Source: an uncultured virus (IMG/VR IMGVR_UViG_3300022217_000140)
Reading direction: 5' to 3' (one strand)
DNA length: 25,547 bases
Virus record (IMG/VR): IMGVR_UViG_3300022217_000140
Span: 1-25,547 of that record
Shown here: positions 1 to 4,287 of the stretch, piece after piece
How positions within the stretch are numbered: position 1 is the first letter of the stretch
How the letters are laid out: each line of letters opens with the position of its first letter
Notes under the pieces: model-generated
The model's database searches: none
The model's input: only the letters and a program-made list of their open reading frames with translations
What the model was told of the DNA's origin: nothing
Program-made: the position numbers and the translations under genes

Positions 1-3000
1 CTCTATTAGAGGAGAATTCTGCGACACCCATATAGCCTTTTTCCTGCCCTGTCTCCAATTGTCCAACAGTATCCCCGCAATTTCGCGGCCCTTGCCAACG
101 CCAGTGCCATCACCAATAAAGTAACCTTTACGTTCTCCCGAAGGCAAGAGGGTAGTATGTGCCTGTCCAGCATAAACAACGGATTCTAACTGCGACAGGC
201 TTAATTTATTTTTCTCTATTACTTCTTTGGGAAGGTTCGGTGTGTAGGTTGGGTCAGGGGGGGCAACGGCAGACATGGCCGCTGATTCGACTAAAACGCC
301 AGGATGTTTTCCTGCGCCGACGATACTTACTTTTTGTGGTTGGTAATCTTCATAGATAGAATCGGAAAATTCTGCCTTTACTCGCTTCTGTCCGGTTCTC
401 TTGCTAATCCCAACGCCGGACTCCAAAGGTCTTTCAATCTGTCCAACACCGACCACGCCAAGTCTATCGGGGAGTCGTTGTTCTCCAACAGGTTTACCCA
501 GTCGCTGTTCTTCTGGTATCCCGATTCCAACGCCTTCATCAACTCCGATGGGTTCTCGTTCAACGACCCCTTCAACGTCTCCTCTATCTGGTAAGGTACT
601 TCTAACTCCCCTTCTTCTAGCCCCCACAGGGCCAGTTGGAGGCAATGTAGTATCGATGGGTTCAGCGCCTGTTTCTCTTGCCGCAGGAAGTCCCTCGCCT
701 TCTGGTTTAGCGGGTGCTGGTTCTCTTGTAATTCTTTCATTTCTAACTCCTTCTAAGAGGTTTACCGCCTCTTCGATATTGGCGACATCTCCGGTAATTC
801 TCTCCTGTCCGGTATCGGCAACCTTGTCAATTACTAATAACTGGTTCCCGTATGACGTGCCGTACTTTTTGTACTCAGAACCGGGGATACCAATATCTAC
901 TCTAATTATACCAAGGTTTTGCTGTTTTCGCCACCATGCTTTGAATTGGTTGGTATCTGTGACACCTTTACCAAGGATAGCGACTAACCTGCCGTTTGGT
1001 TCCAATCGTCGTAATGCTTGCTCTACATGCTTGAATCCTTCTGTTGAGCGTGTCTTTGATACTCTGCCGGCGGTTGCCGAAAAAGGCGGATTCATAACTA
1101 CAACGGTTGGCTTAATATCCTTTGATAGTATGTTGTGTAGTTGCTCGGCATTCTCTTTGAGGATTTCACCGAAATTAAGATGTTTAAGAATCGCCCTTCT
1201 TCTACCCGACAATTCATTCACGATCACATCGGCACCGGCTGTTTTTCCGAATACTGCTAACCCGCCGATCCCCGCCGAGGGCTCAAGATAAACCTCCCCT
1301 TTTTGGATATTTGCAACCCAATTAGCAAGATAAGCCAAATGCGGGGGCGTGGAGAACTGTTGGAACTGCTGAGATTCTTCTGTTCGCCGGGTTTGGGTCG
1401 GCAAGCGGTTGACAAGATTCCTAAACCAAGTAACTATACCTTTGGCCTGTGCCGCAGATTTAGTAGTGGGCGCATCCCGCCGCTTATTTATAATTAGATT
1501 AACTGCCAACTCCATAGCATCATAGGCATCCTTTGGCGTGTACTTTCCTTGCGCCTGGGTGCCACCGTATTCTTCGTCGGCAATAGCAAAAAGGTTTCTT
1601 GAGTTGTAGGCCCTGTCCGGGTCTTTTTCTAATAATACTACTAACCGTTCAGCGATTCTTATTTCAGGATCAACCGCCGTGGGTGGGGGTGTAGTTGGGG
1701 GTGTAGGCTGCGCTTCCGGGGGTACAGGCTTTTCACCAATCAAAGTAACTTGGCCTGTGCGCTTCTTTTCGCTTAACTCCGTAGCGTCAACCGATTGTTT
1801 TATCTTCCCGTCTACTATTAACTCTCCCTCGTCACCGGGCTCTCTCCCGGCTTCCTCTGGCTGTTGAATATCCGGGCGGCCTTCTTCTGGGCGTTCTGGT
1901 ATAGCTGCCTCTTCTTCAACGGCGGGAGTGACCGGTTGTTCCGCTTCTTCCAATCGATCTTCTTCTCCTGGAAGAACTTCTCCCTCAATGTCTCGTATTT
2001 GTGGGGCACGTTTTGTCTCCTCGTATTTTAAGGGAAGCTTAGTTTTCTTTTTATCGCTGGCCCATTCCTTAAATTCCTCAATTGGAATCTTGGTGATAGC
2101 ACCAAGTCCCTTCCATCCCCTCTCGTAATTCTCCCGATAACCCTTCCGGGCTGCTCTCATATTATCGTAACCGATAAGGACTTTATGTTCATCAAACTCC
2201 CCGGTATCCGGTTTAACTTGGTCAACAACATAGACATTATCTTTTTTCGGGCTATCCCCAACAAAGATATCTATGTGGTCTTTGTCCTTGCCAACAGTCC
2301 CTTTGATATAACCATAATGGGATTTCATTGTAATTTCCCAAGTTTCGCCATCGCTGTCTTTCCCTGTGCGCTTTGATCCCTTGGGATTCTCAATTGAGAT
2401 ATCAAGCCCTTGAATTTTTACATGACCCTTCTTGTACGTCCCCGCCTCCTTCTGTGCTTGTGTCGGCTGAGGAACGGCGTTTAGCGGAGATGTTGCCGCT
2501 TCGTTTGCGGCCTTGTCAATTTCTTTAGGTTCCGGGATTAATTTTTCTTTCTCCGCTAAGGCCGTTGGTGCAGGTGGGGACGGGACTGGAGATGGGATAG
2601 GGAGTTCTTCTTCAAAAACTCTCGCGGCCTCCTTGGCTGGTTTGATTTCTGGAACTCTTAAACCCAATCTTTCAATTTGTTCGCGGTCAATTTCTTCCGG
2701 GACCGGTAACCCTTCCCTTTCAATTCTCTCGCGTTCAAGTTCTTCTTGAACAGCTTCCGAGCCCAATAATGTCTCAGCAGCCTCCCTCGCTGTCGGTGGT
2801 GGGCCAATAGGCGGCTCAACTGGTGGACGTTCCTCAAAGACTCTCGCTGCTTCCTCGGCAGATTTATACTCCGGAACTCTTAATCCGAGCCTTTCTAATT
2901 GTGCAATATCTCGGTCTTCTTTAAGCCACAATACCTGAGCCGCTTCTTCTGCCGTTGAAGGCGGCCCCGTTACCTCTTCCCTGAATTCTTTTAACTTCCT

Positions 3001-4287
3001 CTTTATGAGATTGACATTGACGACTTCTTTTTCCGGGGTTATTTCTTCTTTGGTTTCCTGCAAAATATCAATACTATCTGTCGGCTCCCGTGCTACATCA
3101 ATCGCCCCAGACAAACCACCAGTCAATAATGTCATAAATACTGTCGGCCCGACAACATCTAATGCCTCTGCAATGGGGTCAGCTTCCGGCCGGATGCCGG
3201 TTATCTGCTCTATCCCGGCTTGCCCAGCTTGCTGTAATACTTCGGTAGTTACCTCCACGCCAAGAGTTTCTTTGATGAACTGTTTAACAATATTTTTGGC
3301 TCCACGCTTAGCCACCCCAGCAGCATCAAGACCAAATAGTTTTCCTAAGTATTTTGTTCCATAATACTCACCAGCGGCTTCTATGGTACCCGTAGCAATA
3401 GGAGCCAAACCCTGGCCGGATGCCCGGACCTTTTTAGCCTCTTCATATTTTCCTTGCGATTCCAAGTGTATCGCTTGTTCTTCTGCTGTATCGCGGGTTT
3501 GTTGCGCCTGGGATAATCCGAACATTGAGGCGGTTGCAACAGAGGCGATGTTATTAGCCATATTAGCCGCCTTATTTGCCTTGTCCATCAGTTCAGCGGC
3601 CCTAGCAGCATTACCAGCTATACTGGCTGCTTTAGATGCCTTAACAAGCTTCCCGACACCAGACAACACCCTGATACCTTTTCCCACAATTGCACCGGGA
3701 AGTACCGAAGGTGGGAGCATTTTTGCACCTTCATAAACAATACGCTCTAAACCCTTTCGTTTTTTCGGCGGTCCAAACCATTGAAGTTTTTTCGCATCTG
3801 CCCAATCTCCTAAATCTCTTCCTACTTCTTCAAGAACACCCCAAGAGAAATCTGGTACCCTGGTTGGATCACCACCCAATTCAGCAGTTGTCTCACGCAT
3901 AGTTTCTGTGATATCACCAGGCAAGCCAGCCCCAACAAATTCCATTGCTCTTCCGGCCATGCTAGGCAATTCAGTGGTCAAGCCTTCGACTCCGCCTCTT
4001 ATGGCTTCGGCAGCTATTTCACCCGTTATGGCTCCCCACCGACCAATTTGTTCTCGCATCGTTTTTTCTTGTTGGGGAGGTTGCTCAATTGTAGTAGGTG
4101 GGGGCATGTAGTAGGATGTGAAATTGTTCCTTATTTCCGATCTCTCACTTTCATGCAAATTGTAGAAATCACTATCAGCAAGATTCTTATCAAAGTAATT
4201 CTCTAAGATTGCCTGTTTCTCAGGGGCGGGCAACGCAAAATACTCAGGATCTTCATTCCACCTATCTATTTCATGAAAACGTGGCAT
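1..4287 (-). CDS. Large polyvalent virion/ejection protein, partial (at least 1429 aa): InPase + N6-adenine DNA methyltransferase + Strawberry-notch-type SF2 helicase
   Basis: Hand translation from the ATG at 4287 (MPRFHEIDRWNEDPEYF...) has no stop down to base 1. InPase motifs YKKGHVKIQGLDISIENPKGSKR, HYGYIKGTVGKDKDHIDIFVG and FDEHKVLIG (~2030-2520). MTase motifs QQFSTPP, LEPSAGIGGLA (~1255-1287) and VVMNPPFS (NPPF at 1081-1092). SNO motifs LSLSQLESVVYAGQAH and GYFIGDGTGVGKGREIAG (Walker A at 88-114). Confidence 0.92.
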   Translation of the reverse strand, partial: MPRFHEIDRWNEDPEYFALPAPEKQAILENYFDKNLADSDFYNLHESERSEIRNNFTSYYMPPPTTIEQPPQQEKTMREQIGRWGAITGEIAAEAIRGGVEGLTTELPSMAGRAMEFVGAGLPGDITETMRETTAELGGDPTRVPDFSWGVLEEVGRDLGDWADAKKLQWFGPPKKRKGLERIVYEGAKMLPPSVLPGAIVGKGIRVLSGVGKLVKASKAASIAGNAARAAELMDKANKAANMANNIASVATASMFGLSQAQQTRDTAEEQAIHLESQGKYEEAKKVRASGQGLAPIATGTIEAAGEYYGTKYLGKLFGLDAAGVAKRGAKNIVKQFIKETLGVEVTTEVLQQAGQAGIEQITGIRPEADPIAEALDVVGPTVFMTLLTGGLSGAIDVAREPTDSIDILQETKEEITPEKEVVNVNLIKRKLKEFREEVTGPPSTAEEAAQVLWLKEDRDIAQLERLGLRVPEYKSAEEAARVFEERPPVEPPIGPPPTAREAAETLLGSEAVQEELERERIEREGLPVPEEIDREQIERLGLRVPEIKPAKEAARVFEEELPIPSPVPSPPAPTALAEKEKLIPEPKEIDKAANEAATSPLNAVPQPTQAQKEAGTYKKGHVKIQGLDISIENPKGSKRTGKDSDGETWEITMKSHYGYIKGTVGKDKDHIDIFVGDSPKKDNVYVVDQVKPDTGEFDEHKVLIGYDNMRAARKGYRENYERGWKGLGAITKIPIEEFKEWASDKKKTKLPLKYEETKRAPQIRDIEGEVLPGEEDRLEEAEQPVTPAVEEEAAIPERPEEGRPDIQQPEEAGREPGDEGELIVDGKIKQSVDATELSEKKRTGQVTLIGEKPVPPEAQPTPPTTPPPTAVDPEIRIAERLVVLLEKDPDRAYNSRNLFAIADEEYGGTQAQGKYTPKDAYDAMELAVNLIINKRRDAPTTKSAAQAKGIVTWFRNLVNRLPTQTRRTEESQQFQQFSTPPHLAYLANWVANIQKGEVYLEPSAGIGGLAVFGKTAGADVIVNELSGRRRAILKHLNFGEILKENAEQLHNILSKDIKPTVVVMNPPFSATAGRVSKTRSTEGFKHVEQALRRLEPNGRLVAILGKGVTDTNQFKAWWRKQQNLGIIRVDIGIPGSEYKKYGTSYGNQLLVIDKVADTGQERITGDVANIEEAVNLLEGVRNERITREPAPAKPEGEGLPAARETGAEPIDTTLPPTGPVGARRRGVRSTLPDRGDVEGVVEREPIGVDEGVGIGIPEEQRLGKPVGEQRLPDRLGVVGVGQIERPLESGVGISKRTGQKRVKAEFSDSIYEDYQPQKVSIVGAGKHPGVLVESAAMSAVAPPDPTYTPNLPKEVIEKNKLSLSQLESVVYAGQAHTTLLPSGERKGYFIGDGTGVGKGREIAGILLDNWRQGRKKAIWVSQNSPLIE
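378..740 (-). CDS. Nested +1-frame gene (120 aa, acidic, predicted helical) inside the MTase-helicase linker
   Basis: AAGGAG Shine-Dalgarno 6 nt before ATG (gaaggagttagaaATG). ORF limits coincide with the low-complexity linker of the host protein. Globular-like composition (Leu/Glu/Asn, three Trp). Confidence 0.65.
   Translation of the reverse strand: MKELQENQHPLNQKARDFLRQEKQALNPSILHCLQLALWGLEEGELEVPYQIEETLKGSLNENPSELMKALESGYQKNSDWVNLLENNDSPIDLAWSVLDRLKDLWSPALGLAREPDRSE
1818..2009 (-). CDS. Nested +1-frame gene (63 aa, very basic) inside the InPase-MTase linker
   Basis: GAGGAG 7 nt before GTG (acgaggagacaaaacGTG). Ends in three tandem stops TAA TAG TAG (1812-1820). Starts immediately after the InPase domain. 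Confidence 0.65.
   Translation of the reverse strand: MPHKYETLREKFFQEKKIDWKKRNNRSLPPLKKRQLYQNAQKKAARIFNSQRKPGESPVTRES
2608..2898 (-). repeat. Imperfect internal duplication in the polyvalent gene (two ~69-nt copies, 222 nt apart)
   Basis: LERLGLRVPEYKSAEEAARVFEE (2830-2898) versus IERLGLRVPEIKPAKEAARVFEE (2608-2676). Also GPPSTAEEAA versus GPPPTAREAA nearby. Confidence 0.85.

Follow-up and report, generated by a model that had tools for sequence, protein, structure and literature searches.

A putative small gene embedded in an inter-domain linker of a viral polyvalent protein gene

Polyvalent proteins are encoded by some of the largest and most studied counter-defence genes of phages, and the linkers between their domains have so far been treated as spacers. 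Here we analyse a stretch of DNA of 25,547 nucleotides (nt) from an uncultured virus (IMG/VR record IMGVR_UViG_3300022217_000140), referred to below as the window, which carries on its minus strand a giant gene for what would be a virion-type polyvalent (DarB-like) protein. Positions 1818 to 2009 of the window, inside this host gene, appear to be dual-coding: frame 0 would be read as an acidic low-complexity linker between the InPase domain and the methyltransferase (MTase) region, and the +1 frame as a complete small basic phage protein of 63 amino acids (aa). From comparative sequence analysis we consider it very probable that this nested open reading frame (ORF) is a functional gene, embedded in its host and belonging to a large phage family not yet characterised. 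Its family membership, the recurrent nesting, the retention of ribosome-binding site and start codon and the stronger conservation of the nested frame are computed results; its translation, relative age and function are inferred.

The most likely route to the product would be independent internal initiation on the polyvalent mRNA, at a GAGGAG sequence that is followed by a 7-nt spacer and a GTG start. The product would be released as a separate polypeptide folded as a helical hairpin. The sequence constraint on the overlap would be borne by the small structured gene, while the host linker would accept any residues barring stops.

Free-standing and nested members of the small-protein family

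A locus related to the host gene, L062, carries after its InPase domain a 62-codon ORF with an ATG start in the +1 frame; AGGAG precedes this start by 7 nt, and the ORF shares 44% identity with that of the window. A profile made from these two sequences matched 42 proteins at E ≤ 1e-3, three of them at E ≤ 1e-10, in a HMMER search of 1.84 billion representatives. All of them are 43 to 108 residues long, and the N-terminal motif, where present, begins at or near the first residue. An earlier note on this DNA had suggested a likeness to stand-alone small phage proteins, and the profile search for free-standing homologues bears this out, as do the free-standing copies described below. Unlike the full HMMER profile search, a word-index search with the 63-aa peptide gave no candidate.

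A profile of 87 sequences extended the family further: of 1829 candidates, 864 cluster representatives reached E ≤ 1e-5. These are unnamed, or called hypothetical or uncharacterized, in their sources, and none carries a precomputed Pfam domain. The family is marked by an N-terminal motif, M-P-x-x-Y-E-x-M-R-D-K-F, and a C-terminal one, A-Q-x-K-A-A-R-I-Y-N-S...P-V. In the 87-sequence alignment M1, P2 and Y5 are invariant, and E6, R9, A40, A44, A45, I47 and N49 nearly so; the window copy retains every one of these residues. Its N-terminus, M-P-H-K-Y-E-T-L-R-E-K-F with the initial Met encoded by GTG, fits the form M-P-x-x-Y-E-x-(M/L/I)-R-(D/E/N)-K-F, and its C-terminal part, A-Q-K-K-A-A-R-I-F-N-S followed by S-P-V-T, fits A-(Q/K)-x-K-A-A-(R/K)-I-(Y/F/W)-N-S with the P-V tail. 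PHROGs gave no consistent family, three different families matching one of 45 members each. Among GTDB genome contigs only six family loci were found, all from metagenome-assembled genomes.

Loci were collected from IMG/VR with 12 short-form members, the broader family alignments being too diverse for pattern scans. The scan matched 264 stretches; a relative is encoded in 163 of them, from which the best 80 were taken. Together with the window they yield 65 unique peptides, of which 42 are free-standing (no same-strand frame is open across the copy), 18 are nested and 5 are ambiguous, counts that describe a sample and not a census. The nested copies lie inside ORFs of 573 to 1716 codons, lengths capped by that of the locus, and in every case the small gene uses the host's +1 frame. 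Of the free copies, many occupy tight slots between genes of the same strand; the neighbours of free copies are mixed (terminase, portal, ParB-MTase, DNA polymerase A and proteins of unknown nature), with no single context. With a further scan the collection grew by one nested lineage (L162/L163) and six free loci. Three otherwise free-standing copies (L117, L118 and L143) are overlapped by opposite-strand ORFs of 352 to 909 aa.

Twelve of the nested host ORFs were scanned with Pfam: six have domains above the cut-off, namely ddrB-ParB, ART-PolyVal, LPD23, InPase with RadC, and HATPase_c_3, one has a methyltransferase below the cut-off, and five have none. The position of the nested copy relative to the InPase domain varies, since it lies after it in the window and in L062, and before it in L070, L082 and L136. 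In some nested hosts no InPase was detected in the stretch covered, and ddrB-ParB, ART-PolyVal, LPD23 or HATPase_c_3 was found instead.

In a run from the likely source sample, contigs of 151 to 205 bases are about 79 to 88% alike to the window only over positions 1827-1897 and 1962-2031, where the two family motifs lie, and diverge into unlike sequence outside both stretches. They are probably other copies of the family in the same community. Contigs from the runs that contain this DNA (the likely source sample and two runs in which it has a small share) held no informative variants.

Coding evidence and rival explanations

The family relationship can be recovered without any nested sequence. 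A hidden Markov model (HMM) built from free-standing copies only scores all 18 nested peptides at 24 to 95 bits; the window ORF reaches 41.8 bits, with an E-value of 8e-13 in that small search set. The 122 decoys, which are other alternative-frame ORFs of these hosts with a length of 40 aa or more, all stay below 4 bits.

The nested frame is also the better conserved of the two. When 16 distinct nested copies are compared in pairs, their identity averages 47.7% in the nested frame and 29.8% in the host frame, and 119 of the 120 pairs are more alike in the nested frame. Of the 73 sites at which L131 and L135 differ, the nested frame has 15 that are synonymous and the host frame has none; for L082 and L092 the counts are 3 of 7 and 1 of 8, in that order. 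The apparent host motif I-R-x-D-E-G-Q-V-L-P-G-E is the other-frame reading of Y-E-x-M-R-D-K-F. The pairwise comparisons and the free-standing homologues indicate that the nested frame is under purifying selection that is independent of the host frame.

A Shine-Dalgarno (SD) sequence precedes the start of all 18 nested copies, as a 5-mer in 15 and a 4-mer in 3. In the same hosts a 5-mer SD is found at 87 of 1693 other +1-frame start codons (5.1%), which gives a binomial probability of 3e-17, the copies not being fully independent. The start codon is ATG in 17 of the 18 and GTG in the window. By eye, without a tally, SD-like runs also precede most of the 80 scanned copies.

These starts bear on a different route to the same peptide. 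A programmed frameshift into the +1 frame would produce a truncated polyvalent protein, running from the N-terminus to the InPase domain and ending in the hairpin. Alternative C-termini made by frameshifting are common in phage structural genes. Moreover, Tenacibaculum phage Gundel_1 (MT732474.1) has, within a giant protein annotated as a 'structural protein' (gene Gundel1_74; L170:4001-4129), a weak frame-0 match to the hairpin, at 17.7 bits against the free-standing HMM and with an insignificant tblastn E-value of 9 against the whole phage collection; the family hairpin may thus also occur as an in-frame module. Against a frameshift, an in-frame stop stands 6 codons upstream of the start, both in the window and as the median of 19 nested copies, which leaves little room for entry from the host frame and argues for initiation. 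Furthermore, the Met-Pro N-terminus coincides with an SD-preceded start in 18 of 18 nested copies, as it does in free genes (a slippery site was not searched for). We therefore regard the frameshift as very unlikely.

Several observations weigh against a functional embedded gene, and the first of them is the length of the ORF, which could have arisen by chance. When the synonymous codons of the host gene were shuffled 5000 times, 16.0% of the shuffles had an ORF of 63 aa or longer overlapping the InPase-MTase linker and 24.5% had 69 or more open codons there; in the host gene itself, six +1-frame ORFs reach at least 52 aa. Because +1 stops need a T at the second position of a host codon, this frame stays open in a linker that is poor in hydrophobic residues. 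The open frame could then be accidental and its conservation a shadow of that of the host linker, with GAG and GGA codons imitating an SD sequence in a segment rich in Glu, Gly and Pro; alignment scores are indeed raised by composition bias whichever of the three frames is read (88, 124 and 108). The codon-shuffle control proposed in the earlier note gives a divided answer, the ORF length being common by chance whereas the ORF together with a 5-mer SD at its first start is rare (0.68% of shuffles, by a criterion picked post hoc). ORF length alone is unremarkable, and it is homology that raises the nested ORF far above chance. A shadow of the host frame is hard to reconcile with 42 of 65 unique copies that have no overlapping frame, with the gap between the window and the decoys in the free-standing HMM, or with a host frame that is the less conserved one. 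In addition, the seven other +1-frame ORFs of the window host (38 to 59 aa) have no homologues, and a comparison with 159 loci showed no conservation of them save one marginal 21-aa high-scoring segment pair (HSP). A chance origin is, in our view, extremely improbable.

Further points on the opposing side concern the state of individual copies. One nested copy (L138:2501-2650) has a single in-frame TAG at codon 15, the rest being conserved and its host frame intact; it is either a decaying copy or belongs to a phage that recodes TAG. The window copy itself is the most divergent and weakest-scoring of the intact nested copies, and the only one with a GTG start. Both facts would fit a silent relic, that is, a free-standing small gene swallowed by the polyvalent fusion, still recognisable yet untranslated and unneeded. 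The start, the SD and the open frame would however be lost at such divergence, which makes a relic unlikely: 17 of 18 distinct nested copies are intact at only about 48% mean identity, the nested frame is the better conserved in nearly every pair, all starts have kept an SD that is rare in the background, and even the window copy keeps the invariant and nearly invariant residues. A relic is a rather improbable explanation, less so than a frameshift or chance.

Stops in the other frames are in line with a double reading. In the frame equivalent to that of the host, free-standing copies contain 3.8 stops on average, and 5 of 47 contain none, while nested copies have zero by definition; nested copies have thus been cleared of host-frame stops, which is what a reading of both frames would predict. 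Keeping the third frame open would be cheaper (mean of 1.7 stops), yet this frame is never that of the host; its reading is rich in Arg and Cys (e.g. in L138). This suggests that the linker needs an acidic, Gly/Pro-rich reading.

The small gene would be older than the linker frame, as the many free-standing members of the family suggest, and the linker would have been overprinted on a resident gene during gene fusion. A search for a fused and split pair, comparing the flanks of 39 nested copies with 63 free-standing loci, gave no HSP at E ≤ 1e-2 and hence no such pair. On the best tree of 58 unique peptides (48 columns kept, poorly resolved), the nested or free-standing label needs 8 changes; shuffled labels need 14.8 on average, and none of 500 shuffles went as low as 8. 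Well-supported branches force only one such change.

The remaining points to be set against an embedded gene come from sampling and from database and structure searches. The 80 loci were retrieved by family similarity. No cultured phage with the family was found, tblastn of the window peptide and of P0023 against 50,697 GenBank phage records giving no match. On the supporting side, AlphaFold2 (AF2) with the family alignment predicts a helical hairpin (helices at residues 3-24 and 30-51, then a tail) with a predicted local distance difference test score (pLDDT) of 90.8 and a predicted template modelling score (pTM) of 0.71, a confidence that partly reflects the family alignment and not this copy alone. 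Foldseek searches of the model against PDB and BFVD returned nothing at E ≤ 1e-3. An ESM Atlas search likewise gave no usable match, and sequence-profile searches of PDB gave nothing significant for this family or for the 120-aa one described below. As to function, the basic charge, the frequent head-module context of free copies and the nesting in virion-type proteins could point to a nucleic-acid-binding or virion- or packaging-associated accessory protein made late with the polyvalent protein, an assignment that we put forward as speculative.

Finally, the window ORF has a weak match to the Pfam domain DUF7218 (PF23855), with 17.1 bits (E 0.0065) where the gathering cut-off is 27 bits. The match covers residues 40-56 only, the AQxKAARIxNS part of the second helix, and at E ≤ 0.01 the domain matches 7 of 45 family members (best 5.5e-6) and not the other 38. 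Membership in DUF7218 was rejected since the whole-protein score lies below the cut-off, and the window ORF appears to be at most a distant relative. Bacterial proteins of the DUF7218 type presumably contain a similar hairpin, Y-E-x-L-R...K-A-A-R-I-A-N. A literature search found no paper mentioning DUF7218.

The host gene and its second nested frame

The coordinates of the features are collected in Table 1. The nested ORF lies wholly within the host gene, on the same strand and in another frame, with frame-0 domains on both sides; it starts opposite host residue 760 and spans to residue 823. The initiation signal, the size, the triple stop, the position after the InPase domain and the frame shared with the ORF at 378..740 are all as the earlier note had described them. 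So is the opposition of charges, the nested product having an isoelectric point (pI) of 10.7 and a net charge of +11.6, and the overlapping host segment a pI of 4.05 and a net charge of -16.2. The ending quoted there, ...AARIFNS, is in contrast not the C-terminus, as 13 more residues follow it. The triple stop arises because the host codons for Leu-Ile-Val, TTA ATA GTA, are read in the +1 frame; these codons are common in the host gene (0.32, 0.30 and 0.24 of their codon families).

Table 1. Positions of the features of the window and of the host gene
Feature	Position	Strand	Remarks
Host gene, polyvalent (DarB-like) protein	1..4287	minus	From the ORF list; 1429 codons present, 3' end beyond the record
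Host InPase domain	2059..2460	minus	Pfam PF18823, aa 610-743, 196.7 bits, E 1.7e-58; upstream of the nested gene
Host methyltransferase region	778..1590	minus	About aa 900-1170; downstream of the nested gene
Putative nested gene	1818..2009	minus	GTG, 63 codons + TAA; +1 frame of host; 192 nt
SD-like GAGGAG	2017..2022	minus	7-nt spacer to GTG at 2009..2007; host frame reads Glu-Glu
N-terminal family motif M-P-x-x-Y-E-x-x-R-x-K-F	1974..2009	minus	Predicted helix 1
C-terminal family motif A-Q-x-K-A-A-R-I-F-N-S	1860..1892	minus	End of predicted helix 2
Two extra in-frame stops, TAG TAG, after TAA	1812..1817	minus	Full TAA TAG TAG at 1820..1812
Putative second nested gene, +1 frame	378..740	minus	120 codons, ATG; MTase-AAA_34 linker

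The viral record has an estimated completeness of 46% and also encodes a capsid protein and an SU10-like portal. In the host protein, PHROGs families of DNA methyltransferases match about residues 970-1165, the best family being DarB-like antirestriction, and Pfam AAA_34 matches residues 1327-1428 (E 5.3e-41). InPase, MTase region and AAA_34 are thus combined in a single ORF of more than 1429 aa. On the strength of these domains and of the DarB-like matches, the host is taken as a polyvalent protein in the sense of the main text of Iyer et al. 2017 (PMC5512222). A set of 69 viral loci related to the host gene was assembled; the MTase of the host gene is 56-60% identical to that of the best-matching relatives, with HSPs in 67 of the 69. 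A blastn search of the host gene against GenBank phages gave no match.

Between the N-terminal region and the InPase domain, at about residues 440-600 (2490..2970, minus strand), the host protein contains three tandem repeats of about 45 aa (L-G-L-R-V-P-E...E-A-A-R-V-F-E-E). A 59-aa +1-frame ORF in this repeat region (2658..2837) shows no conservation.

The translation of the 120-aa ORF downstream of the MTase region resembles that of a globular protein. In 52 of the 69 relatives an HMM made from 17 copies detects, right after the MTase and always inside the giant ORF, a +1 frame that stays open for 115-171 codons, and 18 copies found by tblastn have ATG or GTG starts and SD-like sequences. 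Of 136 pairs, 134 are more alike in the +1 frame than in the host frame (identity 28.4% against 18.4%). AF2 predicts an all-helical protein of seven helices with a pLDDT of 83.7. A word-index search gave one database protein of 115 aa with 49% identity; Pfam, PHROGs and a tblastn search of GenBank phages gave no match, and a PDB-profile match of the family to a sigma-70 region (E 0.027) is marginal and not significant. No free-standing copy of this family was seen. Two linkers of the host gene thus appear to carry real-looking embedded genes of unrelated families.

The earlier note had gone further and proposed a systematic architecture in which each enzymatic domain is followed by a small nested gene. 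The conservation of the ORF at 378..740 upholds the idea of an additional coding layer in some linkers. One gene per domain is unsupported, because the 63-aa family is loose in its position, not being tied to InPase, and was found, within the flanks covered, in no more than 4 of the 69 InPase/MTase relatives; the lack of conservation of the seven other +1-frame ORFs, in the part of the gene that lies within the record, also counts against it.

A more general interpretation can be offered tentatively. Polyvalent genes might be disguised operons, whose linkers encode in the +1 frame structured small proteins of two or more unrelated families: the 63-aa hairpin family, also known as a free gene, and the all-helical 120-aa family, confined to the place behind the DarB-like methyltransferase. 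The linkers would have come from read-through at gene fusion, and the embedded proteins would partner the injected enzyme domains (e.g. as chaperones, inhibitors or regulators), their expression being tied to that of the giant protein. We hold this to be possible and somewhat doubtful.

Comparison with known systems

In the literature searched, from which subscription journals and supplements were outside the scope, we found no alternative-frame genes in polyvalent genes and no such small-protein family. Linkers that carry complete, conserved and, as predicted here, separately initiated genes would amount to a hidden proteome that standard gene callers discard. The large unnamed family now gains a defined sequence signature. 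For annotation and engineering a caution follows, as a second gene may be lost when a 'linker' is deleted or recoded.

The hosts of the nested copies carry the hallmark domains of polyvalent proteins, InPase, ddrB-ParB, ART-PolyVal, LPD23, RadC and MTase, as set out in the main text of Iyer et al. 2017 (PMC5512222). That main text contains neither 'overlap' nor 'frameshift' and uses 'nested' twice, for a hairpin fold; supplements were outside the scope. Alternative-frame genes within polyvalent genes are thus undescribed in it.

The nearest parallel is Rz/Rz1 of phage lambda, where a small phage gene is likewise contained entirely within a larger one, in its +1 frame and with an SD and start of its own. 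In both cases the small gene is usually missed by gene callers, and one of the overlapping frames is of low complexity or disordered. Here, however, the enclosing gene encodes a giant polyvalent protein of many domains, the overlap falls in a linker between domains, and the 63-aa protein has no lipoprotein signal or known partnership with its host. The embedded gene would moreover be the structured, older-looking partner. In the part of a spanin survey on which we draw (PMC6139136), 182 of 528 systems are embedded, 228 overlapped and 118 separated, and no family mixes the embedded with another architecture. The 63-aa family differs from these spanins in having both embedded and free-standing members.

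Viral overprinting offers the wider frame of comparison. According to a generalisation cited in the same part of that survey (PMC6139136), one of the two products is rich in disorder-promoting residues, and here too two frames are read from one strand, as proposed, with one product prone to disorder. The case is an unusual one among overlapping genes, as a single family occurs both free and embedded. In the textbook situation the novel ORF is the embedded one, whereas here it is the enclosing linker that looks like the newcomer.

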